Source: Treponema sp. (GTDB taxonomy: Bacteria; Spirochaetota; Spirochaetia; Treponematales; Treponemataceae). From it: a DNA stretch of 64,000 bases. Below are positions 1 through 56,484 of this stretch, piece by piece. A program made the translations under genes and the position numbers. Every line of letters starts with the position of its first letter. Positions within the stretch are counted from its first letter, which is position 1. The stretch lies in the NCBI GenBank assembly GCA_016294105.1, contig JAEDCN010000009.1, forward strand, positions 4,867 through 68,866, read 5' to 3'. The notes beneath the pieces were generated by a model, which worked only from the letters and a program-made list of their open reading frames with translations, ran no database searches and was not told the origin of the DNA.

Positions 1-856
1 ACTGTTTGAATTCTAATTGGTCAGAAGAATATTCTTTTCCATCGATTTCCCAATAACAATGCGGATAATATTTTGTCTTATCTTTTTCACCAAAAGCAGA
101 ATCTATCATGCTTTCCCAAATATACTCAAATTCATTCGTTCCATAGATGAAATTTTTGCTGTCACAAGACTTACCAAGAAATTCGATTATATCAATCATG
201 CAATTGAACAAGAGCATTGTCTTTTCATTGAAAGTCTGCGAACGCTTTATCTTGATTATGGAGAGAAAAAGATTTCTATTAAACCTTAAATTAGGTTTGA
301 GCGGTACAAATGAAGAAAACAACCAGCCGATTTTTGAGAAGCTTTCCCAAACACAATATTGATGAATTTGACTTATTAACTCATCTTCATTATGCTTTAT
401 TTTTCTTGTGATAAGCTCTTGGTAAAAAATACCTTCATCTTGAAATAAAGGCTTTACTTGTCTAACTGTTTTTGTCCAGTTTACTTTGCCGTTAGTGGAT
501 TTCGTATAGACTACTTCCTTTTCAAAATAGTAACCATTAGTTAGAAATTCTTTTATCAAGTACAGATATGCATGAATCGGGAAAAGAACTTTGTCCTTAA
601 AAGCCATTTTGGGAGTCTGGATGAATGATTCATTCCTATCATTTTTTGAAGAAAGAACTCCCAATAGATTTAATACATCCTTTTTCAACTCATCTTCTGT
701 TGAAGCCCTTTTATAACCAAGAGGAAAATTGACTCTAAAAGATTCATTTTCATATTTTATGCCCACAAAGTAATCTTTTTCGGTCAAATTAGCATTGTAA
801 ACACAAGCGTCAAAAAGAGAAAATGAACTGCCCCCTTTCTGCTTCGATTCTATCAA
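1..856 (-). CDS. McrC-like / LlaJI R2-type restriction subunit, N-terminal part (gene runs off the window start)
   Basis: This ORF is not in the supplied ORF track. I checked the minus-strand frame triplet by triplet and found no stop in 285 codons from 856 down to 2. An in-frame TAG at 860-862 caps the 5' end, so the probable start is TTG at 856-854. It begins 12 nt downstream of the McrB-like GTPase gene, which is where McrC/LlaJI.R2 sits. The family call rests mainly on context. Confidence 0.6.
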   Translation of the reverse strand, partial: MIESKQKGGSSFSLFDACVYNANLTEKDYFVGIKYENESFRVNFPLGYKRASTEDELKKDVLNLLGVLSSKNDRNESFIQTPKMAFKDKVLFPIHAYLYLIKEFLTNGYYFEKEVVYTKSTNGKVNWTKTVRQVKPLFQDEGIFYQELITRKIKHNEDELISQIHQYCVWESFSKIGWLFSSFVPLKPNLRFNRNLFLSIIKIKRSQTFNEKTMLLFNCMIDIIEFLGKSCDSKNFIYGTNEFEYIWESMIDSAFGEKDKTKYYPHCYWEIDGKEYSSDQLEFKQ

Positions 857-867
857 AAACTACCGCC

Positions 868-2433
868 TCAATTCTCAATTTCAGAGAATAAATCTTTAAA
901 GACAGAAAACTCTTTGTCATTCTTAAAATCACGAGTTAGACTTTCAAGATTTGTATAACTGTTAAAAACTTTTTCACGGCAGAATTTAAAGGCATCATCC
1001 CAAAGGTATTTCAAAACTTTTTCTACAAACAAATCTTTTGGTATGATATAATCATTTCCTAACTTTGTCGCTTTTACAAACCAACAACCAATCCGTTTAT
1101 CCTCCATACTTGAAAGCCCGGCTTCTTCACTCATTTCACCTATTTTTATGTTAATTGTCTTCTGGAATTTTTCCCAAGTAATAGTTTTTGCAGTGTCAAT
1201 GAATGCACCTTTCTGAGAATTTTCTTTATCTGTATCACCGAATACATTCTCTATTAATTTCATATTCCATCTTCGCTGAAAAGCATTATCAAGAGTAAAG
1301 ACATTTTGATCACTTGTGTTCATAGTGGCAAGAATTGAAAGATTCGGCGGTAAGCGAATTCCTGTATTAGCAGAAAAATGAATACCATTGATATCCAAAG
1401 CCTTGCCGTCAAAAGTATCATCTGTATCACGAATATAATTGTTGATTTCAGAGTTCATCACAAAATATTCGCTCCACCCTTTGCCGTAAGTATTGAGAGA
1501 GCCATCGTGCGAAGTAGTTTTGGATTCATCCTCAATCCTATCCAAAAGCTGGAATAGTTCTCCAAAAATAGCAGCAGCATTTCCACGGTTAATCTCTTCG
1601 ATAATCAAAACATAACGGTTCTGACTGTCACAAAGAGCTTTTTTTAGAATAGAAGTAAATGGCCCTGGCTTAAAAACAAAATCAGTTTTTCCCTGTACCA
1701 GTTTTGGCATTATCTGTCCAATAAAGTCCGCATTTGTGTATTCAGGATGGAATACGGTACGCTCCACAAAAACATCCTGCTCCTGTTCTGGTATATTATA
1801 TTCAGTTTCAAGTTTTTGTTTTATTTTGTGGGATTTTCCGCTTCCAGGAACACCGTAAAAGATGATTTGTTCGGGAGAGGTGTGTGGGGTGGCGGCGGGG
1901 ATTGGAAAACCTGATGTTTCAGCATCTTTTGAAAAATCCATCGAAAATCCGTTGATAGTTTTTGTAAAAACTATATCAGTCCGCCCATATTTGATTAGGT
2001 GTTCCTTTCTAATTAAACTTCCAGATTTTAACCCTAATCTATGGCGAATATATAAGCCTAAAATTTTATTGCTCTCTGGTGTTGATAATGCTTGAGGTTT
2101 GCCATCCTTAACCTTCGGCTGAGAACGACTAAACACGAAATCATTGCCTAAATCATCTATGACATGAAATGTACCATCTTCTGGGAAAAAATCTGACTGA
2201 TAAATTTCTTTAGGCAACTGAAAATATGATTCATTACCACTTCGTGATGACTCGGTTTTACCTTTTTCTATGCGTAACGTTCCTGTTTCAGGGTTAAATG
2301 CCCAGTTCAAACCATATTGAACACCATACTTCTGGTTTTCATCCAGCAAATTTATTTTTATGGTCTTACTATCAATAAACCCAAATTTATGAGGAATAAC
2401 AAATAAATCTGACACCTTGCAATCTCCTTTCAC
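868..2433 (-). CDS. McrB-like AAA+ GTPase restriction subunit (LlaJI R1-type) with an N-terminal putative DNA-binding region
   Basis: 521-aa ORF with Walker A GVPGSGKS and the McrB-type segment VLIIEEINRGNAAAIFGELFQLLDR, followed by TMNTSDQ and FQRRW. The GTG start overlaps the methyltransferase stop (GTGA, 2430-2433). Confidence 0.85.
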   Translation of the reverse strand: MKGDCKVSDLFVIPHKFGFIDSKTIKINLLDENQKYGVQYGLNWAFNPETGTLRIEKGKTESSRSGNESYFQLPKEIYQSDFFPEDGTFHVIDDLGNDFVFSRSQPKVKDGKPQALSTPESNKILGLYIRHRLGLKSGSLIRKEHLIKYGRTDIVFTKTINGFSMDFSKDAETSGFPIPAATPHTSPEQIIFYGVPGSGKSHKIKQKLETEYNIPEQEQDVFVERTVFHPEYTNADFIGQIMPKLVQGKTDFVFKPGPFTSILKKALCDSQNRYVLIIEEINRGNAAAIFGELFQLLDRIEDESKTTSHDGSLNTYGKGWSEYFVMNSEINNYIRDTDDTFDGKALDINGIHFSANTGIRLPPNLSILATMNTSDQNVFTLDNAFQRRWNMKLIENVFGDTDKENSQKGAFIDTAKTITWEKFQKTINIKIGEMSEEAGLSSMEDKRIGCWFVKATKLGNDYIIPKDLFVEKVLKYLWDDAFKFCREKVFNSYTNLESLTRDFKNDKEFSVFKDLFSEIEN

Positions 2434-3503
2434 TCGTTTATATTTGCAGGAATTGACTCATAATGAATTCCTGCAAAAGTCTTTAAGACTGCCTCAAATA
2501 TAATTTTTGCTCCATCACAAGGAACCGCCATCCCTATCTGTTTTCTGACAGATTCCTTGCTTCCCTCAAAAACATAGTTATCAGGGAAAGTTTGGAGTCT
2601 AGCACGTTCCCGATTCGTCAATGCTCTTGGCTCGCTCCAATGGTAAATATGAGTCCCCCCTCCTCCTGATCCGGTCACGGTATATGCAGGTTTACTAGGA
2701 TCGAGCCGTTTATAAATCTGACTAATTCTTGCACCACGGACATTCAATTTCAAATGGTCAGGAAGATTTGCTGTAAATGCATTCTCACCAGGTTTAATAT
2801 GATTAAGTCTCTCGACAACCTGAGCAGATTGCACCGTATACTCATTGTTACTTGCATTCTCCTGTATAGGGGGCTCATCAATAGCCTCTCTACATGTTTT
2901 CAAAACATATCCATTCGTACTGGGAACTTTGAAATCAAAAGGCAAATCATTTCTGATACCAATAATTATAACCCGATGACGAGCTTGGGGAATACCATAG
3001 TCTTCAAATTTATATAAATTGGGATAAATCTTGTATCCAGCAGCAATCATATCTGCCTTGATTTTTTCAAAAGCGGAACCTTCATTGGCACTTTTTAATC
3101 CTCCAACATTCTCCGCCAAGAACCATTGCGGTTGTTTATCTTTAAGCACTTTGATTCCATAGGAATACAATGGACCAAATTTTCCATTGATTCCCTTTTG
3201 TTCTCCAACCACACTAAAATCGTTGCAAGGAAAACCAAAAGCCAATGCGTCAATATCTCCGATATCATACAAACGGTTAAAATCAAGTTCTCGAATATCA
3301 CCACAAATAACAGATTCTGGTTTATCAGGGCAGATATTTCTGATATATGTCTGGCAAGTATCCTTATCATAGTCATTCGCCCATTGATGGATAATCTTAT
3401 AATCAGGATTACCTATTGTTGCTGTAATCGCTCCAAGCGCAAGGCCACCGGGGCCACAGAAAAGTTCGCCTAACCTAAATATCATTTGGTTTTGAAACCT
3501 CAT
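2430..3503 (-). CDS. DNA (cytosine-5)-methyltransferase
   Basis: 357 aa with the canonical m5C motifs: FCGPGG (I), GFPCNDFS (IV), ENV (VI), QARHRV (VIII) and GMAVP (X). Confidence 0.92.
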   Translation of the reverse strand: MRFQNQMIFRLGELFCGPGGLALGAITATIGNPDYKIIHQWANDYDKDTCQTYIRNICPDKPESVICGDIRELDFNRLYDIGDIDALAFGFPCNDFSVVGEQKGINGKFGPLYSYGIKVLKDKQPQWFLAENVGGLKSANEGSAFEKIKADMIAAGYKIYPNLYKFEDYGIPQARHRVIIIGIRNDLPFDFKVPSTNGYVLKTCREAIDEPPIQENASNNEYTVQSAQVVERLNHIKPGENAFTANLPDHLKLNVRGARISQIYKRLDPSKPAYTVTGSGGGGTHIYHWSEPRALTNRERARLQTFPDNYVFEGSKESVRKQIGMAVPCDGAKIIFEAVLKTFAGIHYESIPANINE

Positions 3504-3677
3504 CCAGTAGTTTGTTAAGGAAATGATTACATTTCCTTATATCCTCTCCTCTTGTTGTATGCCAAGATATGACATCGGCATACCTAAGAAACGGCATGGA
3601 TAAAACGTTTTCAAAATATATTTTACCGCAGTAAAAGTAGAGATACCATCATAAAAAAATCGAAATTCTATATACAT

Positions 3678-4055
3678 CTATACTTCCACATAAGCAAAGG
3701 ATTGTGGTGCGTACATTATATCAAAATCAGAAAGCTCTTTCTTCTGATTGTATTCTCGAGCAGAAGCTACCTTTATTGCAAAAGCATTTGCTCGGCCATG
3801 AAAATACTTGTCATAAAATTCTTGAGTTGTGCCTGCAAAATCCTTCGTCAAAGTCCACAATACAGCCGGAGAATCATTTAAAATTGTATCTATTTCAAAT
3901 TCTCCGATGACTTTTCGCTCAGGAGACGAGGAATATACAATTACACGCCTTACAGACTTGTCTTTAAAAACATTTTTTCGGAATTCATATTTTTTTGTTC
4001 CATCAAAAATCTTATGTGCATATTCAGGTTTAATCGACAACAAAACTGCCTTCAC
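3678..4055 (-). CDS. ASCH domain (PUA-like fold) protein
   Basis: 125 aa. The N-terminus MKAVLLSIKPEYAHKIFDGTKKYEFRK is typical of small prokaryotic ASCH proteins. Its start overlaps the stop of the upstream PIN-GNAT-PUA gene by 26 nt. Confidence 0.75.
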   Translation of the reverse strand: MKAVLLSIKPEYAHKIFDGTKKYEFRKNVFKDKSVRRVIVYSSSPERKVIGEFEIDTILNDSPAVLWTLTKDFAGTTQEFYDKYFHGRANAFAIKVASAREYNQKKELSDFDIMYAPQSFAYVEV

Positions 4056-5532
4056 TTTTCGTCTCCTCTAAAATAGTTTCAAATTGTGCTTTACTGATTT
4101 TTCTGAAACCTCTTGGTGCATCATTTATTCCATGGAGAATTTCAAGCTCTATCAATCTTTCCATAGTTACTCGTTTTGGGAATGAGTACACATATAGAAA
4201 ATTTACGACAAAAGGTCTTCGTGTAGAGTAATTCCACATTTCTTTTAATGAATTTTCAGAAAATACACTTCCACTAAGGCAATAATCTACAAATTCTGAT
4301 TCAGAAGAAAAAGACTCCCTTATGTCAGACACGACTCCTACTGTCGTAACAACACTTTTAAAATATCCACCAGTTCGATAGAAGATAAGAATATCTCCTT
4401 TTTTTGGATGTGGTGCGATAGCTCGTGAAACATAAACCTTGGCTATACCATTGCGATGAGGAGAGTCTTCTATAAAATCTTTTGGCGATTCCGTATTCAA
4501 TATAGAATCTGGTAGTAATTCTGTATGGTACTCAGGATAAATAGGGACTATAAAGGAATCTTGGGATTTAGATATGTATGGATAACTTTCTCTTATACAG
4601 TTGACGGAAAAGCTCGGAATGAAAGTTCTAACATATACATTCTCAGCCGCTTTCTTGCCCCAAAAAGTAAAACCCCATTTTTCCATGAGACTAATCAATC
4701 TTTTTTGTTCATCTCGCTTGTCATATATTGTGACATATATTTCATCAACTTTATTCTTTAAAGCATTGTCAAAAATAATCTTTAGAAATCGCTCTCCTAA
4801 TCTGAATCCATTGCTAATCACCTTAAAAGTACCGACTTTTAATCTTTTCTTTGGCTGAAATTGTGGAACTATATCTAGGTAGTTCTCATCGGTTCCTTCA
4901 ACCTTCAAATATAAAAAGGATAATAATCTTCCATTGTTTGAATTTACCGTTATATAAGCTTCATCATCATATTTTCTCAAAAACCAATTGTCAAATCCTT
5001 CATAGTCATCTTTAAGTGATTGAAAGAAAGTGTCATTTAAATCAATTTTAGCAAACTGGATTTTCTGAACATTAAGGACTTTATAATCCACAAGCTCAGG
5101 ATGCTCAGAATAAATCTTTTCCAGAAATTCATCTATGGTAAAAACTTTTTCGGAAATTTCCAATAGATCAGCTTTCTTATGAATTTTTTTATCTTCTGTT
5201 ATCAAGCTATCAACCCTATTAGAAAAAACTTCATTTAAAATTTGAGTATCTATCTTATCATTCTCATTTGTATCAATTTGCTGAGAGACTTTTAAAACTT
5301 GCTCACTCATAGGCGATGAATTTTCGATAATTTCATAACTCTGTAACTTAACTTTAAATGCTGAGACAGTATCAGAATTTGAATTTTTTAAAATTTCAGA
5401 AACAGTCAGATTATGAATAACTTTTATATAATGTCCTCTATCAAGCCATTTAAAAAGTGTGCCTATATCCTGATTTTTAATCTTAGAAGCTTCTCTGTGA
5501 ATTATAATATTAGTGTCAAGCAGTACTCTCAC
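4030..5532 (-). CDS. Three-domain fusion: N-terminal PIN-like nuclease, central GNAT-like acetyltransferase, C-terminal EVE/ASCH-like PUA-fold domain
   Basis: 500 aa with a GTG start preceded by GGGAGGTGA. The PIN-like part reads MRVLLDTNIIIH...LITEDKK. The GNAT-like core reads GERFLKIIFDNALKNKVDEIYVTIY...LMEKWGF. The PUA-like C-terminus reads GDILIFYRTGG...VVTTVGVV...RGFRKISKAQFETILE. Domain calls are by eye, with no HMM run. Confidence 0.6.
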   Translation of the reverse strand: MRVLLDTNIIIHREASKIKNQDIGTLFKWLDRGHYIKVIHNLTVSEILKNSNSDTVSAFKVKLQSYEIIENSSPMSEQVLKVSQQIDTNENDKIDTQILNEVFSNRVDSLITEDKKIHKKADLLEISEKVFTIDEFLEKIYSEHPELVDYKVLNVQKIQFAKIDLNDTFFQSLKDDYEGFDNWFLRKYDDEAYITVNSNNGRLLSFLYLKVEGTDENYLDIVPQFQPKKRLKVGTFKVISNGFRLGERFLKIIFDNALKNKVDEIYVTIYDKRDEQKRLISLMEKWGFTFWGKKAAENVYVRTFIPSFSVNCIRESYPYISKSQDSFIVPIYPEYHTELLPDSILNTESPKDFIEDSPHRNGIAKVYVSRAIAPHPKKGDILIFYRTGGYFKSVVTTVGVVSDIRESFSSESEFVDYCLSGSVFSENSLKEMWNYSTRRPFVVNFLYVYSFPKRVTMERLIELEILHGINDAPRGFRKISKAQFETILEETKSEGSFVVD

Positions 5533-5754
5533 AACTCACCTCCCATGGCAACTTCTACAATACCATCCTACCACACCCACTGTCCCATAGAATGACACAG
5601 TGATATATTTTTCTTACAAAATATACCGAGCATTATAATCAATAACCCGAGCCCTGACAATGAGAAGAATGGAGAAAATGAATTTTATTTATCACATTAA
5701 TCTTTGATTCAATGTAAGGTTATATGCAGATAATGGAGATTCCCTCCTCCCCCC

Positions 5755-5867
5755 AATCTTACACACGGTACTAGTGCAATCTTACACACGGTAAGATTGC
5801 CTTCTTACACATGGTAAGATTGGACTCTTACACATAGTAAGATTGGGCTCTTACACATGGTAAGATT
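5755..5867. repeat. Five tandem 23-24 bp iteron-like repeats, each containing the palindrome (AAT)CTTACACAYGGTAAG(ATT)
   Basis: Read directly. The copies are centred near 5765, 5788, 5812, 5835 and 5858. Copy 2 (5778-5798) is a perfect 8-bp inverted repeat with a 5-nt spacer (AATCTTAC acacg GTAAGATT). Copy 1 has a degenerate right arm. Confidence 0.9.
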
Positions 5868-5901
5868 GAGCGTGGAAATTATTGTGCAGGGAGATCAAGA
5901 A

Positions 5902-5931
5902 ATGATAATTTTTTTGTAAATAAATTATCAT
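5902..5931. promoter_or_regulatory. Perfect 10-bp inverted repeat (ATGATAATTT n10 AAATTATCAT), a candidate operator just upstream of the XRE gene promoter
   Basis: Read directly. The arms are 5902-5911 and 5922-5931, and the repeat ends 5 nt before the -35 box. Confidence 0.6.
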
Positions 5932-5936
5932 TTTTA

Positions 5937-5965
5937 TTGACAATAAAGTAATTTATTATTACTAT
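5937..5965 (+). promoter_or_regulatory. Sigma70-like promoter of the XRE gene
   Basis: TTGACA at 5937-5942, a 17-nt spacer, and TACTAT at 5960-5965. A GGGGGA RBS at 5974-5979 precedes the ATG at 5985. Confidence 0.55.
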
Positions 5966-5984
5966 TATAGTATGGGGGACAAAG

Positions 5985-6323
5985 ATGAACAATAACTTGG
6001 GAAACACACTCGAAAGGATGCTCAAGGAACAAAACATGAGCCAAAAGGAACTGGCCCAAAAGGCAGCTGTTACTGAGGCTGCAGTCTCCCACTACATCAA
6101 GGGGGATCGCATTCCCCGTAGCACCACCCTAGGACTCATTGCAGGAGCCTTGGGGGTTACAGCAGGTTTTTTGCTAGGAGCAGGAGTTACTTCTGCCACT
6201 GCAGAAAAGAAAAAACAAACCTTTGAAGAAACAAAGGATATGCTCAAAAAGCACAGTGACAGCTTTACCCAGCAACAGCGACTGGAGCTTATTGGTATAT
6301 TGTCACAAGGAGGGCAGGAATGA
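5985..6323 (+). CDS. XRE-family helix-turn-helix transcriptional regulator
   Basis: 112 aa. The HTH_3-type segment is MSQKELAQKAAVTEAAVSHYIKGDRIPRSTTLGLIAGALGV. Confidence 0.85.
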   Translation: MNNNLGNTLERMLKEQNMSQKELAQKAAVTEAAVSHYIKGDRIPRSTTLGLIAGALGVTAGFLLGAGVTSATAEKKKQTFEETKDMLKKHSDSFTQQQRLELIGILSQGGQE

Positions 6324-6568
6324 AAAACAAAACATAAGGTCACTCTCAAATTCGGAATGGAGTGACCAACTACGAGTAAAGCAAAAAAGCAAGAGGCGGT
6401 GGCGTTCGTCGAACACACAACTTCATGCTGCTACCGAAAGCAAAGGGCATCCCCAAAAGGAGGGAGCCTTAAATCTAATAGGGTAAAGAAGCCCGAAGGA
6501 GCAAACAATGATTTGCTTTGTACGTTGCCGGAGAGAGACTCCGGTGTATAGAAATAGGAGATATCCAA

Positions 6569-7339
6569 ATGAATACGAATTCAATCGAGAAATTGAATGG
6601 TTCAGTGAATGTAACCATCCACAAAAATTACTTTAAGAAAGACGACACAAACCATGCACGAGTCCAGCGTACTACTGCTGGTATGGACAATGTGATTGCC
6701 CTTGTCTGTGAAAAATCAAACCTTTTTGACAAAGCCTCCTTGGTGGCAGCCCAAATGCTGTTCAAGGATGCGATTCTGGACCTGTTGCAACAGGGAGCTG
6801 CAGTAAACCTTTTTGAACTAGGAACCTTGTATCCTTGTTCCCAAGGGAGTATCAATTCCAACAACCCTAGCCCTACAGAGATTCCTCCCCTCACCTTGGG
6901 ATTCACCCCCGCACAAGTTTCACTAGAAGCCGTAAGCAAGGCCACAGTCTCCATGTCTCAGCTGGCAGAAACCCATCCTGTCATTAACCTGATAGAAGAC
7001 CTTTCCACTCACAAGTCTGATTTTTCATTGAGCCTCTCAAAGCCTGTGCGCATTACCGGCAGAAGACTCAAAATTGCAGGGGATACAAGTGAAACAGGCC
7101 TGTACTTTGCCCCGCACAATGACCAGGGTTTGATTGACGAAACAGAAGCAGACTGGATCCGAGTAGAAGATGCAGCCTTTTTCAAGAACACTTCCACCTT
7201 CTTAGAGTTCATTCTTCCAGCATCTTTAAGTCCAGACACCAGCTACAGCCTAGTTATCAAGACAGCCTCTGGCCGAGGAAAAACAGTGAATAAAACTGTC
7301 CGCAAGCTCGTCTTTGACAAAACAATCACCATCAATTAA
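6569..7339 (+). CDS. HU-like DNA-binding domain protein with an Ig-like C-terminal (DUF4469-like) region
   Basis: The track ORF is 6518-7339. I prefer the ATG at 6569 (MNTNSIEKL), which is preceded by AGGAG. The architecture resembles Bacteroidetes-type HU/DUF4469 proteins often found on mobile elements. This call is from memory. Confidence 0.5.
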   Translation: MNTNSIEKLNGSVNVTIHKNYFKKDDTNHARVQRTTAGMDNVIALVCEKSNLFDKASLVAAQMLFKDAILDLLQQGAAVNLFELGTLYPCSQGSINSNNPSPTEIPPLTLGFTPAQVSLEAVSKATVSMSQLAETHPVINLIEDLSTHKSDFSLSLSKPVRITGRRLKIAGDTSETGLYFAPHNDQGLIDETEADWIRVEDAAFFKNTSTFLEFILPASLSPDTSYSLVIKTASGRGKTVNKTVRKLVFDKTITIN

Positions 7340-8485: not shown

Positions 8486-9079
8486 TTATAAAATTCTATA
8501 CATTTGCATTAATTCGTAATTATTTTTAGAAATAATACTCGTATTAAGTGAACGAAAACCATTGTTTTCATAAAATCTTATTAAAGAGGTATTTTTCTCG
8601 CATTCTAAAAACACAGTTTTTCCACTTGTCATGTTAAATACGTCTTGAACCTGTTCCAGAGCAATATCCATCAAGCTACTACCTTGTATTGCTCTCGAAT
8701 TGGGAGAAAAATTCTTACCAAGTTGTGCAATTAAAATTGCAGGAATGAGATATGAAGAAAATTCTTCATCAAAATACCCAAATCGACTAATAGATTTTTT
8801 CTCAGATTGAGACAAAATATCAGCTTTTATGGTGAGCATTTTAATTGCCAAGGTAAAATATCCCAAAATATCAAAAGAGTCTTCTAAAGAAACAATGAGA
8901 TGGGTAGATGAGGTTTTTAATTTTGTAGATTGAACAGCCTTGTTTTTCAAGAAAAATTCAACATCTTTGTTTTTTGAAGAAAAAGAATCCGAGATGGAAG
9001 CAAAGAAATCTTCACCTCCATCCACAGACAAAAGGTCAATCAATCGTATAATCTGAAAATCATTTCCTCTGATCATCAA
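8486..9079 (-). CDS. GNAT N-acetyltransferase with TacT/AtaT-like (toxin-type) architecture
   Basis: 197 aa, with a TTG start at 9079 or ATG at 9076. The layout FFLKNKAVQS...ILGYFTLAIKML...IPAILIAQLGKN...IRFYENNGF resembles GNAT toxins of type II TA pairs. It lies in an AT-rich islet. Confidence 0.6.
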   Translation of the reverse strand: MMIRGNDFQIIRLIDLLSVDGGEDFFASISDSFSSKNKDVEFFLKNKAVQSTKLKTSSTHLIVSLEDSFDILGYFTLAIKMLTIKADILSQSEKKSISRFGYFDEEFSSYLIPAILIAQLGKNFSPNSRAIQGSSLMDIALEQVQDVFNMTSGKTVFLECEKNTSLIRFYENNGFRSLNTSIISKNNYELMQMYRIL

Positions 9080-9230
9080 CTATCGCTTGTAGCATGTTTT
9101 TTGATAAAATCATTACATTTGTTTTATTTAAAGGATGCTTTTTATCTTCATTTGAAAGAAGCTGTATAAAATTCTGAGCTTCTTTTTTTTCTTTTATTAT
9201 GAATGACTTAGAAATACTTGAAGTTGCCAT
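9060..9230 (-). CDS. Unannotated 56-aa ORF, candidate antitoxin/partner of the GNAT gene
   Basis: I translated it by hand (it is below the track's size cutoff): MATSSISKSFIIKEKKEAQNFIQLLSNEDKKHPLNKTNVMILSKNMLQAIVDDQRK. AAGGAGG lies 7 nt upstream of the ATG at 9230. Its stop at 9060-9062 overlaps the GNAT start region. Confidence 0.5.
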   Translation of the reverse strand: MATSSISKSFIIKEKKEAQNFIQLLSNEDKKHPLNKTNVMILSKNMLQAIVDDQRK

Positions 9231-9322: not shown

Positions 9323-10693
9323 CTACAGTCCAGCCAGTTTTTGCTCCGCATCCTTGTGGCCCAAGGCAGCAGCCTTTTCGTAGAGCCTGCGAGCTTTCTT
9401 GGGATCACTTTCTCCGCCGTAGCCTTCCAGATACCAGTCTGCCAGCTGCACCATGGCCTCCACATAGCCTGCAGTGGCTGCACTTTTCATCTTTTTCAGT
9501 GCCATCTGGCTGTCGGCCTTGTTGTAGTGATACAGGGCTAGCTCAAACTTGGCTTTGGCATTCCTGCCTCGCTCCGCCTTGGTAAAGTACTTGTACATCA
9601 GCTGTTCTGGATGTTCCTTCGAGTCAACCACTGCAGCAGGATGATGCTTGATATGGCAACCATGGAGGTAATCCTGTAGGGCCTGAATTTCCTTCAAGTC
9701 AGCAGGAGAAAAATTCACAATGGCAGCCAAAGCAATGTCGTCACCGCTTCCGTTCTTTGAAAGCTTAGGCAAGTAACGGCAAATTTCTTCCTTTACCAAA
9801 GCATCCTTACACTGCAAATCACATTGATTCTGATTCTTGCAGCTAAGCTCCTGGCATTGGGGGAATTCCGACTGCACAAAGAGATTGAACAAGGAACGAT
9901 AAAATCCTGTCACCTGCTCTTCTGTTTTGAAGGAATTGGCCACCCCGTCGGAGGTACACAGCACCACCTTGGGAATCTGGGTGCCAGCCACAGAGCGAAA
10001 TTCCTTGGTGGCAGTAGCATCGCACAGGGAAGTGGTCTGGTTCAAAAAACAGCCCTCATCCTTGGGCATGGGAAGCACAAATTCCTGACCGTCAAGAGAA
10101 AGGGCAAAATCCCCATCTCCAATCTGGATGGCAAACCAAAAATCCTTGGTGGCAAAGTAACTTACCAAGGTACAACCGTAAATGGAGTAAAGATCCTGCC
10201 CCTGACGATACAAAGCTGCAACAGAAGGCTTTTCTCCTTCCAGATAATCGAGCTCTTCCTTTGTGATGGGATGCTCCGCCAAGTCTTGGTCAATGAGCTT
10301 GTGCCAGTCCTTTACAATGGCCAAGGCCAGCTGGGAACGAATGGTGTCAAAATCACCTACCACCACCAATTCCTGGATTCTATCCATACGACGAGAAACA
10401 ATGTCCTGTACCACCTGCAGGGCGAATTCAGCTCCCTTGTGACTGCGAAAATAGGGGGTACCACCGTGGCCGTCGCTGATTCCCATAAAGCTAAAGGCAG
10501 TACCGTCAGCGGCTATCAAGGAACCGTTGACGGTGGCCCTATCCTGACAGGGAAATCGTCTTCCTGCCAGCAAATGCTCCCGCTGCAGCTCCCGCTTGCG
10601 GTGACTTTCTCCCTGCACCGCCACCGCAAATTCCATCTGCGGAAATCCAGTTTCCATGGAATTACCAGCCTTCGTCAACGCTGTCTTCTGCAT
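9323..10693 (-). CDS. PP2C-type Ser/Thr phosphatase fused to C-terminal Sel1 repeats (TerY-P phosphatase component)
   Basis: PP2C signature GISDGHGG. The C-terminal Sel1-like repeats read AGYVEAMVQLADWYLEGYGGESDPKKARRLYEKAAALGH. The start is ambiguous: ATG at 10693 overlaps the vWA gene, while ATG at 10657 lies just after its stop. Confidence 0.85.
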   Translation of the reverse strand: MQKTALTKAGNSMETGFPQMEFAVAVQGESHRKRELQREHLLAGRRFPCQDRATVNGSLIAADGTAFSFMGISDGHGGTPYFRSHKGAEFALQVVQDIVSRRMDRIQELVVVGDFDTIRSQLALAIVKDWHKLIDQDLAEHPITKEELDYLEGEKPSVAALYRQGQDLYSIYGCTLVSYFATKDFWFAIQIGDGDFALSLDGQEFVLPMPKDEGCFLNQTTSLCDATATKEFRSVAGTQIPKVVLCTSDGVANSFKTEEQVTGFYRSLFNLFVQSEFPQCQELSCKNQNQCDLQCKDALVKEEICRYLPKLSKNGSGDDIALAAIVNFSPADLKEIQALQDYLHGCHIKHHPAAVVDSKEHPEQLMYKYFTKAERGRNAKAKFELALYHYNKADSQMALKKMKSAATAGYVEAMVQLADWYLEGYGGESDPKKARRLYEKAAALGHKDAEQKLAGL

Positions 10694-11375
10694 CCAGCTC
10701 TGCCATCTTTTCCTGAATGGCAGCGGCTACTTCCTCCTGCCGTGTCTGGGCTGCATCGGCACCAGTGCGCTTGCTTCCAATTTTTGAGGAGGTAACAGAC
10801 ACAAAGCGAATCAATTTTTTCAGCATACTCTTGTCCGCAAGGTAGATGGCAGTTTCCGTGCTACCAGTAAATTCCTTTAGCACACTTAAATCAGCCCCCT
10901 CCACTCCCAGAGCAATTTTGATGGCGGAATTGAACCACTTGTTTTCCCGTAGCTTTTGGATGCCAGCCTTAAAGTTGTCCGTAGGCTCTCCGTCACTGAT
11001 AAGGATGATAACTGGAGCGTAATTTCCTACTGCATCCTCCAAAAAGGCGGAACGATTCAGCTTGGACTCCAGCTCAAGACAGGCTTCACCTAAATCGGTA
11101 ACCCCATCTGCTGCTAGATTGCTCCACTTGTACTTGTCCAAATCCTCTGGCACGGGAGTAAGCCACTCGCAGCCAGAGGCAAAGCTCATTACCGCAATCT
11201 TTATCTTGGCATCTGCATTGGTGTCCGAGATTTCCTTGAGGTCTGGCAACACTTCCCGCATGGCGTCATTCACCTGGCCAATATTGGAGCCGCTCATGCT
11301 TCCTGATGTGTCAATCAGAAAAAAGAGTGCCATTGTTTTACGGGGAATTTCCACAGCTTCATCTAACAATCCCAT
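10662..11375 (-). CDS. TerY-like von Willebrand factor A (vWA) protein
   Basis: 237 aa with the MIDAS motif DTSGSMSG. The RBS GGAGGA lies upstream. Confidence 0.88.
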   Translation of the reverse strand: MGLLDEAVEIPRKTMALFFLIDTSGSMSGSNIGQVNDAMREVLPDLKEISDTNADAKIKIAVMSFASGCEWLTPVPEDLDKYKWSNLAADGVTDLGEACLELESKLNRSAFLEDAVGNYAPVIILISDGEPTDNFKAGIQKLRENKWFNSAIKIALGVEGADLSVLKEFTGSTETAIYLADKSMLKKLIRFVSVTSSKIGSKRTGADAAQTRQEEVAAAIQEKMAELDAEDSVDEGW

Positions 11376-11390
11376 AGCCTATCCTCCAAA

Positions 11391-12704
11391 TTATTTTATC
11401 GTCCCCTCGCTCAAGGTGCCGAACTTAATGCTATTATTTCTGATAACAGGAATTACCTCTCCTGTCATACGAACTTCCTCCTTGCCACCGGGACTGCGCC
11501 GATACCAGGGCAGATTGGAAAGGTTCTTCAAGCCCCAAATCCGAGAATTCTTCTGGTTCTGCACCACAAGGCCAATTTCTTCCCGAATATTTTCCACGGT
11601 AAAATCACTGGTGGCATCAATGTCATATCGATAAATGCTTAAACCAGGCTGCAGGGGAATCCGCTGACTGCCAATCACAAGGAAGGCTGGTTGCTCAGCA
11701 GGCTTATTGCAGTTCATGCACACAGTCTGCTCCCCCTCCTTGGGATAAAAGGTGAGGTTGCCACAGTTGGCACAAAAGAACAAATCACGCCGCAGCCGTA
11801 CCAGAGCCTTGAGCCATTCTCGCTCAATGATTCTATCCTCACGATTGGCTCCATCACTTCGCATCAGCTCCTTGTGAAAGGCCCGCTGAAAAAGCTCGTG
11901 AATATAAGATGGAAACACGGGCCAAAACTTTAGGGCGTTCACGTGAATTCCTTCCTTGGGCCTGTTGGAGTCATCCTCTGGGTCAAAGATAAACACAGGA
12001 TTCTTGCAATACAGATTCAGCTCGTTCTCGTCAGGGTCGTCCCCGTCCTGATCCCGTATCCCAGCCAAGGGATGATTGCGGAACAAAAGCAAGAACAGAA
12101 TTACCGCCAGAGAAAAGCGGTCACTGAAGGTGTCGGGCTTGTGCTGACTCAGTACCACTTCCGGTGCCACATAGCGAGGCTTTCCCTGAATGCCAAGGTT
12201 TTCTCCGTCGTGGGCAACATTGTCGTTGTCTCCAATCAACACATCTCCCGACTCTGGATTGATGAAAAAATTGCCGTCGTTCAAATCCTGATAGCTTAAT
12301 CCCTTGTTGTGCAGGGTTTTGAAGCTGGCAGTAATTTGTAATGCCGCATTGATAACCGCAGCAAAGCTGGAAAATTTCACTCGGTTTAAGATAAAAAGGG
12401 AAAAATCCTTGTAGCAGTCGGGCTTTAGTTGCATCACATAGCCAAATCCCCCCTTCTCGTCCTTTTCTGTTACCGCCAAGGGCCACAAAAAGGTAGGGGC
12501 TGGGGAGCCACGAGCCACATTTTCTTTTAAGTTGTCGTAAAAACGCTGGGATTCAATCTTTTTGTACCACTTGAGGGCGTAGTATTCCTTCCTGAACCGA
12601 ATCCGGTAGATGATGCCCTGGCCACCCTCTCCCAGTATGTCCACCACCTGAAGGCTTTCTCCCTCCAAGGTTTTTAGGGTGGCACCCCGTTTTAGGCTGG
12701 GCAT
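11391..12704 (-). CDS. Ser/Thr protein kinase with an internal zinc ribbon and an FHA-like C-terminal region (TerY-P kinase)
   Basis: Kinase motifs: GEGGQGIIY, YALKW, YQDLNDGN and GKPRYVAPE. The zinc ribbon reads CANCGN...CMNC. I prefer the start ATG at 12704 (MPSLKRG), which is preceded by GGAGGTGG and forms TAATG with the upstream stop. The track start at 12734 is an extension. Confidence 0.88.
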   Translation of the reverse strand: MPSLKRGATLKTLEGESLQVVDILGEGGQGIIYRIRFRKEYYALKWYKKIESQRFYDNLKENVARGSPAPTFLWPLAVTEKDEKGGFGYVMQLKPDCYKDFSLFILNRVKFSSFAAVINAALQITASFKTLHNKGLSYQDLNDGNFFINPESGDVLIGDNDNVAHDGENLGIQGKPRYVAPEVVLSQHKPDTFSDRFSLAVILFLLLFRNHPLAGIRDQDGDDPDENELNLYCKNPVFIFDPEDDSNRPKEGIHVNALKFWPVFPSYIHELFQRAFHKELMRSDGANREDRIIEREWLKALVRLRRDLFFCANCGNLTFYPKEGEQTVCMNCNKPAEQPAFLVIGSQRIPLQPGLSIYRYDIDATSDFTVENIREEIGLVVQNQKNSRIWGLKNLSNLPWYRRSPGGKEEVRMTGEVIPVIRNNSIKFGTLSEGTIK

Positions 12705-13057
12705 TAGTAACCACCTCCAGAAACTCGTTCCCACTGGCCAAAGACCACCTCGCTCTCGCTACCGCACCAGGGGCAACGCACTTGAGATTCGTCCTTGTAG
12801 CAGTAGATTTTCTGACAGTTGCCACACTGGGCGAGCTCATGGGAGGAGCAGAAGGGACAACCGGGATATTCCTGGTCATCTACAAAATTTTCTATTTCTA
12901 TCTGGGAGGAAAAATGCTCCCGCTGGGCTACTTCTTCCTTGAGGGAAAAACTCCAGGTTTTGACCCAGGTGTTTCCTCGCTTTTCTATGCGGATACCATA
13001 AAGACGCTCAGCACTGTAGGGACAGCGGGGAGTGATTACGGCGGCAGTCTTTTTCAT
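12704..13057 (-). CDS. TerY-C metal-binding (Cys-rich zinc-ribbon) domain protein
   Basis: 117 aa with the cysteine pattern CPFC...CGNC...C...CPWCG. It is the first gene of the kinase/vWA/PP2C operon. Confidence 0.75.
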   Translation of the reverse strand: MKKTAAVITPRCPYSAERLYGIRIEKRGNTWVKTWSFSLKEEVAQREHFSSQIEIENFVDDQEYPGCPFCSSHELAQCGNCQKIYCYKDESQVRCPWCGSESEVVFGQWERVSGGGY

Positions 13058-56323: not shown

Positions 56324-56376
56324 AGAATTAGTTTACAGGAATTGGTAAATCAGAACAACTGTTTAAAATAAAAAAA

Positions 56377-56484
56377 GCTGGCAACTACCTACTTTCCCGC
56401 GGATGCAGTATCATCGGCGTTGGAGGGCTTGACTTCCGTGTTCGGGATGGGAACGGGTATTGCACCTCTACCATGGTCACCAGC
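56377..56484 (-). rRNA. rrf: 5S ribosomal RNA
   Basis: The minus strand reads GCTGGTGACCATGGTAGAGGTGCAATACCCGTTCCCATCCCGAACACGGAAGTCAAGCCCTCCAACGCCGATGATACTGCATCCGCGGGAAAGTAGGTAGTTGCCAGC. The conserved CCGAAC...GAAGT...CGCCGATG...AGTAGG blocks are present, and helix I pairs GCTGGTGAC with GTTGCCAGC. A T-run follows the 3' end. Confidence 0.93.

Follow-up and report, generated by a model that had tools for sequence, protein, structure and literature searches.

The gene pair and its family

Two overlapping genes, A and B, are the subject of this work. They are located on a 64,000-nucleotide stretch of DNA from a Treponema species (GenBank assembly GCA_016294105.1, contig JAEDCN010000009.1, positions 4,867 to 68,866), the whole of which is referred to here as the window. 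Gene A encodes a protein in which a PIN domain, a GNAT-fold domain and a PUA-like domain are joined, and gene B encodes a stand-alone ASCH protein (Table 1). That the two minus-strand genes overlap and are situated in an AT-rich block, as had been stated in an initial annotation made from the sequence alone, agrees both with the list of open reading frames (ORFs) and with the composition of the window, the GC content being 0.29–0.35 over positions 3501–6000 versus 0.45–0.52 past position 6000. A has more than 6,100 homologues (nearly all of about 500 amino acids) and B has more than 3,900; they are therefore genuine genes rather than chance ORFs. Translational coupling of A and B is probable, to judge from their arrangement.

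The same annotation had considered the system to be undescribed. This does not hold, since PADLOC, a phage genome entry and two papers precede it (see below). The pair in the window is a further instance of a catalogued, experimentally uncharacterized candidate module and not a new architecture. In PADLOC, the model PDC-M11A (PDLC04422) matches residues 1–499 of the 500 residues of A with E = 1.7e-212, and PDC-M11B (PDLC04425) matches B over its full length with E = 1.6e-47; there is nothing structural in which A–B differs from PDC-M11 of PADLOC-DB v2. It should be noted that the PDC catalogue is a collection of 145 expressly untested candidates, which were selected for "guilt-by-embedding" in BREX, DISARM and Type I restriction-modification (R-M) loci (bioRxiv 10.1101/2024.01.29.577857). 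In the literature search PDC-M11 was found to be named once, in a strain inventory.

Fusions of the same kind were described earlier under other names. Matelska et al. (2017; PMC5499597) list PIN_15 and PIN_17 as PIN-GNAT-PUA fusions with a second PUA/ASCH gene in the operon, mention extra ATPase genes in Bacteroidetes and state that PIN-less variants exist. Bell, Wolf and Koonin (2020; PMC7641849) deal with "(PIN)-GNAT-EVE" proteins. An ASCH gene nearly always accompanies these, and an AAA_17 ATPase gene often does; proteins with PIN are encoded beside Type I R-M systems and those without it in prophages. By their account all of these modules are uncharacterized. Both papers credit Iyer et al. 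(2013). The operons described there share with A–B the three-domain fusion and the second PUA/ASCH gene, and the optional AAA_17 gene, the association with Type I R-M systems and the dispensability of PIN are all found again in the family as analyzed here. The window differs from them in holding the minimal two-gene form, without AAA_17, HNH or membrane partner, and in that the adjacent R-M system is of the LlaJI type rather than of Type I.

A homologous pair is also found in the Escherichia phage PhiR47_2 (PV340567.1), where the PIN-less pair is annotated as "GevT toxin" and "GevA antitoxin". The core of A is 39% identical to GevT (E = 1e-65, GevT residues 12–356) and B is 44% identical to GevA (E = 1e-40), which is also an ASCH protein of 125 amino acids. 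A and B stand in the same order as GevT and GevA, whose genes also overlap, by 23 nucleotides as compared with 26 in the window, but GevT has no PIN domain and the pair is prophage-borne between cI and kil. With a GNAT-PUA fusion, an optional PIN domain, an operonic ASCH gene, full-length matches to the hidden Markov models (HMMs) and an association with R-M systems and mobile elements all present, it is practically certain that A–B belongs to the family variously known as PDC-M11, (PIN)-GNAT-EVE plus ASCH, or GevTA.

Table 1. Positions in the window of genes A and B, of their domains and signals, and of the adjoining R-M operon.
Feature	Position	Strand	Description
Gene A	4030..5532	-	500-aa ORF, GTG start; PIN-GNAT-PUA(EVE-like) fusion, PIN-bearing GevT homologue
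Gene B	3678..4055	-	125-aa ORF, GTG start; stand-alone ASCH protein, GKER class, GevA homologue
A/B overlap	4030..4055	-	26 nt common to the end of A and the start of B
Shine-Dalgarno-like GAGGAG	4063-4068	-	8-13 nt 5' of the GTG of B
Sigma-70-like promoter candidate TTGTCA-17-TATAAT	5632..5660	-	about 100 nt 5' of A; consensus match only
PIN domain of A	5143..5532	-	aa 1-130; acidic residues D6, E14, D108, D114 all present
GNAT-fold domain of A	4618..5070	-	aa ~155-305; invariant K232, K237, Y266, T268, F288, E297
C-terminal PUA-like (EVE/ASCH-fold) domain of A	4048..4575	-	aa ~320-495; K365 invariant, Y385 97% conserved
ASCH octapeptide of B, G19-T-K21-K-Y-E24-F-R26	3978..4001	-	GxKxxExR, GKER class
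LlaJI-type R-M operon	1..3503	-	adjoins the A-B pair, downstream, same strand
Dcm-type m5C (5-methylcytosine) methyltransferase gene	2430..3503	-	Pfam
R1 gene, B3-like + AAA_5	868..2433	-	McrB-like; Pfam
R2 gene, RE_LlaJI	1..856	-	partial, cut by the window edge; E 1e-21

The number of promoter-like sites around A is not above that expected from shuffled sequence. The intergenic region 5' of A is 450 nucleotides long and is followed by a divergently oriented gene for an XRE-type helix-turn-helix (HTH) protein (5985–6323, plus strand) and by a gene, likewise divergent from A, for an HU-like protein with DUF4469 (6518–7339, plus strand). The GC content of these two genes is as high as that of the flanking genome, and they are therefore probably outside the island.

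Domains of the two proteins

The three-domain architecture of A, which had been read from the sequence, is borne out by structure prediction and by Pfam matches in relatives. An AlphaFold2 (AF2) model of A, built from 72 diverse family members, has a predicted local distance difference test score (pLDDT) of 90.5 and a predicted template modelling score (pTM) of 0.74, and in a Foldseek comparison with the PDB the PIN, GNAT and PUA-like folds were all matched with a probability of 1.0. Among the 72 relatives, PIN_3 was recognized in 19, EVE in 13 and Acetyltransf_1 in 6. A search of PDB sequences with the family profile of A gave no match, and a Foldseek search of viral structures gave generic GNATs only.

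In A itself, Pfam PIN_3 matches residues 2–116 with 22.7 bits (E = 1.8e-4), which is under the cut-off of 27. The fold of the domain is that of VapC15 (4chg), PAE0151 (2fe1) and HARP (7og5), as matched in the PDB by Foldseek. In 49 PIN-bearing representatives the acidic positions of the domain are 80–86% conserved. The domain is missing from the family members of about 350 amino acids.

The GNAT-fold domain of A has no match in Pfam. It was recognized by Foldseek from its similarity to PaiA, NatD, Ard1, TacT (5fvj) and GmvT (9ilr), the target TM-scores being 0.5–0.6. In the 49 PIN-bearing representatives it is the most conserved domain of the protein, with a mean pairwise identity of 0.44 versus 0.31 for PIN and 0.29 for PUA. 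Its invariant residues are distributed over the predicted strands β4 (K232 and K237), β5 (Y266 and T268), β6 (F288) and β7 (E297); in GNAT enzymes it is this region that makes up the cofactor and substrate site.

According to the model, the C-terminal domain of A is certainly PUA-like; its assignment to EVE rather than to ASCH is soft. Pfam EVE (PF01878) matches residues 377–489 with 18.9 bits, under the cut-off of 23 (the 13 relatives mentioned above match it at E < 0.01), and the best fold in the PDB is that of ZmASCH (5y6c; TM-score 0.79, root-mean-square deviation 2.8 Å). When the domain was aligned with the family of B by hhalign, just β1 and α1 could be aligned, with a probability of 13%. 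Homology of the domain to the ASCH domain of B was therefore rejected, and it is without the GxKxxExR octapeptide. Since the octapeptide is absent and the cleft tyrosine Y385, typical of EVE/ASCH, is kept, the PUA domain of A looks like a reader and not like an enzyme.

The assignment of B as a stand-alone ASCH partner is upheld by a match to Pfam ASCH (PF04266) of 24.8 bits, which is over the cut-off of 21.2. Its AF2 model, built from a shallow alignment, has a pLDDT of only 58.8. Among proteins of solved structure, ZmASCH is closest to B in sequence (E = 8e-8, 29% identity). Within the octapeptide, G19, K21, E24 and R26 are 100% conserved in 55 unique and in 44 aligned homologues. Recently it was reported that 19 of 19 ASCH proteins, ZmASCH included, strip N4-acetylcytidine (ac4C) from tRNA in vitro, and mutants of TthASCH, EOLA1 and TRIP4 indicated that the Lys and the Glu of the octapeptide are essential (bioRxiv 10.64898/2026.02.27.708502). 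With its invariant octapeptide, and given the removal of ac4C by other ASCH proteins, B is apparently an active GKER-class ASCH enzyme and a candidate for an amidohydrolase of the N4-acylcytidine type. With the ASCH amidohydrolases and deacetylases YqfB, TthASCH, ZmASCH and EOLA1 it shares the GKER octapeptide with its Lys and Glu. It should be kept in mind, however, that B and ZmASCH are only 29% identical and that ZmASCH itself is not encoded in a PIN-GNAT-EVE operon.

The latter point was looked at separately. The 375-aa gene upstream of the ZmASCH gene in Z. mobilis codes for an unrelated secreted protein, and BLAST and profile searches for a GNAT-EVE partner came out empty; ZmASCH is thus rejected as a cognate partner of a GNAT-EVE protein. 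Of 12 plasmids of alpha-proteobacteria, 7 do have ZmASCH-like genes beside those for PIN-GNAT-EVE.

A different activity of the ASCH fold is known from BapA, which strips glucose from glucosylated 5-hydroxymethylcytosine (5hmC) in phage DNA and thereby widens the defence provided by the Brig3 glycosylase (PMC13160076, 2026 preprint). As compared with B, BapA is a two-barrel glucosyl hydrolase working on DNA.

Conservation, variants and surroundings of the pair

The conservation of the pair was analyzed in 61 genome loci, which are mostly from Bacteroidota and for the rest from Elusimicrobium, Lentisphaerae, Myxococcota, Gammaproteobacteria, Anaerolineae, Brachyspira, Helicobacteraceae and a Woesearchaeota metagenome-assembled genome. 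In 60 of them a homologue of B is found downstream of A on the same strand, and in 53 the two genes overlap by 4, 23, 26 or 29 nucleotides; where they do not, either a third gene stands between A and B or A is frameshifted. Moreover, A and B are found as one polypeptide in nature: on three independent metagenome contigs, L072:769-2667 and L073:339-2237 among them, a single chain of 632 amino acids has the order PIN-GNAT-EVE-ASCH. There is no separate B gene on these contigs, and NERD and TnpV genes are found on the flanks. The position of B downstream of A, the overlaps and the natural fusions together indicate that A and B are functionally linked.

The A proteins of the family come in several lengths: about 500 amino acids (PIN plus core), about 350 (core only) and about 615 (PIN and core preceded by an additional ASCH domain at the N-terminus). 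The PIN-less forms are widespread, and as the GNAT domain is the most conserved one and has invariant residues in β4 and β5, the conserved core of the family is considered to be GNAT-EVE. PIN can also be replaced. For example, in a TIR-GNAT-EVE variant (L071:280-2251) a TIR_2 domain (E = 1.7e-13) is present in place of PIN, the overlapping ASCH partner being kept; the GNAT domain of this protein is over the gathering threshold of Pfam Acetyltransf_1. The alpha-proteobacterial ASCH partner carries a fused HTH domain and is encoded ahead of PIN-GNAT-EVE. The TIR variant, the A–B fusion and a membrane partner of about 340 amino acids were not found in the parts of Bell et al. (2020) and Matelska et al. 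(2017) considered here.

Co-directional accessory genes abut A in many of the 61 loci: a gene for a membrane protein of about 340 amino acids in 27, for an AAA_17 kinase-like protein in 17, for an HNH_5 protein in 10 and for a protein of about 140 amino acids in 6. As none of them is present in the window, the pair there is of the minimal form. The membrane protein, referred to as c0, has about 330–400 amino acids and C-terminal transmembrane helices; its gene stands directly 5' of A, often with a 4-nucleotide overlap (examples are L006:8990-9994 and L016:2327-3415). It matches nothing in Pfam or PADLOC, and a search of PDB sequences with its profile gave no match. c0 may be a membrane effector of an extended system. 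The fullest operon (L012, L016, L018 and L064) has the order AAA_17 kinase-like gene, c0, HNH_5, A, B. In one Flavobacteriia/Bacteroidia lineage (L015:11478-12482; also L013, L044 and L046) A and B are separated by a gene for a protein of about 334 amino acids that has a C-terminal transmembrane helix. The gene overlaps A by 26 nucleotides and abuts B; the similarity of its product to c0 is weak (BLAST E = 0.01–0.08, no HMM match).

In the window the pair is directly followed by an R-M operon (Table 1). It had been described as an m5C-methyltransferase/McrBC-type restriction operon, of which the adjacent Dcm gene and the McrB-like gene stand. The type is a different one: the RE_LlaJI match, the operon's own Dcm and the R1 protein with B3-like and AAA_5 domains identify it as an R-M system of the LlaJI type, protected by methylation, and not as a modification-dependent McrBC system. 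The operon looks complete, apart from the cut at the window edge, and has a single methyltransferase gene. The LlaJI prototype of Lactococcus has two.

The proximity of R-M genes raises the question whether A and B could be helpers of restriction, in that they remove or alter a base hypermodification of phage DNA for the linked restriction enzyme or provide the R-M system with modification specificity. Indeed, the pair precedes the Res gene of a Type III R-M system in L006 and HsdR of a Type I system in L022, L026 and L042, and in the 174-nucleotide gap between B and Dcm in the window neither a terminator-like nor a promoter-like site was found. There is a precedent in BapA and its broadening of the Brig3 defence (PMC13160076), and Bell et al. 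(2020; PMC7641849) mention an ASCH-HsdS fusion in Methanohalophilus. However, most loci are without adjacent R-M genes, the prophage copies in the rexAB slot (see below) have no R-M partner, and the module has effector domains of its own (PIN, TIR) and accessory HNH nucleases. Contig L003 carries an A–B pair 100% identical to that of the window at another position relative to the same backbone genes and without the LlaJI operon; the operon is therefore separable from the pair. A role as helper of restriction is thus considered quite improbable. An EVE reader serving an adjacent modification-dependent (McrBC or type IV) nuclease is not what is found here either, the neighbour being of another type and the pair occurring also without it.

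Other neighbours of family pairs are PDC-S14, HNH, Abi-like ATPase and integrase genes. The family is carried by plasmids, including an archaeal plasmid where it is located near Cas3, and in a tblastn search of phage genomes, homologues without PIN turned up in E. coli phages of the lambdoid group, in SopEPhi and Lj965, in a Helicobacter phage and in others. The pair of PhiR47_2 sits where phage lambda has rexAB, next to cI. This slot is expressed in the lysogen and is typical of prophage defence or exclusion functions rather than of lytic counter-defence. At an identity of at least 99%, 275 of 5,426 complete E. coli genomes (about 5%) have the PhiR47_2 locus, always on the chromosome.

The phage-borne PIN-less pairs could be taken to mean that the GNAT-EVE core is a weapon of mobile elements, serving in protection from restriction, in addiction or in exclusion, and that a chromosomal copy such as that of the window is a relic or was domesticated; a phage-protective role was proposed by Bell et al. 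(2020; PMC7641849). Against this stand the lysogen-expressed position of the lambdoid pair, the presence in the window copy of a PIN domain, as in the forms that go with R-M loci of the host, and the absence of phage structural genes near A–B in the window. A benefit to the phage is for these reasons regarded as very improbable.

The distribution also bears on a role outside of any conflict, namely that A and B keep up ac4C, or a mark like it, on the RNA of the cell as part of a housekeeping turnover of RNA modifications. The in vitro deacetylation of tRNA by ASCH proteins mentioned above would fit, and PUA-like domains are common in RNA-modification enzymes (PMC7641849). But a housekeeping pair would not be expected to be scattered sporadically over phyla, phages and plasmids, to be present in only about 5% of the complete genomes of E. 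coli, to be located in a low-GC island whose position differs between near-identical strains, or to be fused to PIN or TIR effector domains, and this explanation is exceedingly improbable.

Possible function of the pair

The location in a low-GC island, the embedding of family members in R-M operons, their presence in the rexAB slot and on plasmids, and the exchange of PIN for TIR or for nothing while ASCH is kept, make it likely that A–B has a role in biological conflict, be it in defence or as a toxin-antitoxin system. The general toxin-antitoxin and defence flavour of the initial annotation is therefore retained, the match to a PADLOC candidate pointing in the same direction. The more specific reading preferred here, which is regarded as reasonably probable, is that A–B is a toxin-antitoxin-like anti-phage module with A as effector and B as antidote, situated in a defence island of low GC content that is independent of the LlaJI-type R-M system. 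By a slight balance of probability, A would be the toxic partner and B the antidote. Each of the alternatives fits fewer observations than does this reading.

Mechanistically, the PUA/EVE-like domain of A would bind nucleic acid, possibly modified, the substrate being most likely RNA or tRNA, and the GNAT-fold domain would carry out the core toxic reaction, which is probably of the acyl-transfer type. The PIN RNase would be an add-on effector, replaced by TIR or missing in other members of the family. B, presumably co-translated from the overlapping gene, would hold the activity of A in check, most plausibly by hydrolyzing the N-acyl product as an eraser, as DarG does with respect to DarT, or else by binding A or the substrate of A. 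Toxicity of A and a phenotype upon phage infection would be the consequences expected of such a module.

There are several points that speak against the preferred reading. A presumed toxin gene in first and an antidote gene in second position is atypical of classic type II toxin-antitoxin systems, and so are covalent fusions of the two partners. Only a minority of the loci are embedded in R-M operons. The names GevT and GevA are absent from the literature searched, the labels toxin and antitoxin being GenBank annotation only, and a functional test of the family was not found in that literature either. The acidic residues of PIN are substituted in about 15–20% of the family members. A further objection concerns the GNAT domain: none of 72 family members has the strict acetyl-CoA motif A (Q/R-x-x-G-x-G/A) at the aligned position or close to it, and Matelska et al. 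(2017; PMC5499597) argue that the domain is without motif A and inactive. In addition, an alignment with RimI, which is no more than a hint in view of its probability of 15%, puts T268 and M283 at the positions of the catalytic Glu and Tyr of RimI.

The absence of motif A leads to a further interpretation, in which the GNAT domain is a degenerate scaffold, the PUA domain targets RNA, PIN is the sole toxic activity and the ASCH protein, instead of being an enzyme, serves in regulation or as a stoichiometric antitoxin; this is how Matelska et al. (2017; PMC5499597) and, partly, Bell et al. (2020; PMC7641849) see it. All four acidic residues of PIN are kept in A, and the ASCH-HTH fusion preceding PIN-GNAT-EVE in alpha-proteobacteria resembles a DNA-binding antitoxin. 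Yet much of the family is without PIN, and so is the phage protein that bears the label toxin; the acidic residues of PIN are substituted in the proportion given above, and TIR can stand in for the domain. The catalytic octapeptide of B is invariant. Nor does the GNAT domain, the most conserved of the three, look like a domain in decay. In place of motif A there is a loop of the form G242-x-R/K244-L/I-G246-E247-R248-F249, in which G242 is conserved in 92%, R/K244 in 90%, G246 in 94% and E247 in 94% of the 72 sequences, and so strong a conservation argues for a derived functional GNAT site rather than a decaying one. PIN as the only toxic activity is thus hardly probable.

Comparison with known systems is of help here. 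The GNAT-toxin systems TacAT, AtaRT, KacAT and GmvAT share with A–B the GNAT fold and the two-gene, toxin-antitoxin-like layout. However, A is without motif A, is a multi-domain protein of 500 amino acids and has as partner a downstream ASCH protein rather than an upstream ribbon-helix-helix (RHH) or DUF1778 antitoxin, and is therefore not a member of this toxin-antitoxin family. A–B is not of the VapBC type either: PIN makes up only the first 130 of the 500 amino acids, it is dispensable in the family, and in the ORF list of the window there is no upstream antitoxin gene next to A. With DarT-DarG the pair would have in common the proposed logic of a toxin that modifies nucleic acid and an enzyme that removes the mark. 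This is a working analogy only, as the folds and the chemistry (ADP-ribosylation, macrodomain) are unrelated and writing and erasing by A–B are hypothetical.

An enzymatic mechanism of writing and erasing is regarded as rather unlikely, though testable; the finding that ASCH proteins act as ac4C deacetylases (bioRxiv 10.64898/2026.02.27.708502) would help the idea, whereas the missing motif A would weaken it. In its most developed form, which we consider unlikely, A–B would be an immune switch based on reversible acylation of nucleic acid. The GNAT domain of A, guided by the EVE-like reader, would write an N-acyl mark, e.g., N4-acylcytidine, on tRNA, mRNA or phage nucleic acid; B would erase the mark in uninfected cells; infection would tip the balance, and the fused or neighbouring effectors (PIN, TIR, HNH, membrane protein) would carry out the response. 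If true, DarTG would have its first counterpart based on acylation, and a physiological role would for the first time be known for the bacterial ASCH "erasers".

The window itself adds just one instance to the family. The family is nevertheless of interest, because it has thousands of homologues in bacteria, archaea, prophages and plasmids, has been pointed out several times from 2013 onwards, and no published mechanism was found for it. The comparative work sharpens the targets, which are the GNAT-EVE core together with an apparently catalytic ASCH protein, the derived loop of the GNAT domain, the swappable effectors and the single-polypeptide form of A–B. With these handles and the preprint on ac4C removal by ASCH proteins (bioRxiv 10.64898/2026.02.27.708502), the hypothesis of writer-eraser immunity is directly testable.

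Some other features of the window may be mentioned. A 5S rRNA gene is present at 56376–56484 (minus strand), and since neither 16S nor 23S rRNA gave a match at the gathering threshold within the 64 kb, this suggests that the 5S gene is unlinked. A second islet of low GC content (about 0.30) is located at 8486–9230 (minus strand), where an ORF of 56 amino acids (9060–9230) overlaps one of 197 amino acids (8486–9079) by 20 nucleotides. The longer product has a GNAT-like "RFYENNGF" near its C-terminus, a weak PDB match to the GmvT toxin (9ilr, E = 0.037) and no Pfam match. Possibly the two ORFs form a divergent toxin-antitoxin pair in which the toxin is a GNAT protein. Just past the island, at 9323–13057 (minus strand), there is a cluster of TerY-C, Ser/Thr kinase, VWA and PP2C-Sel1 genes resembling the "TerY-phosphorylation triad", the Pfam assignments being those of the identical genes on contig L001.

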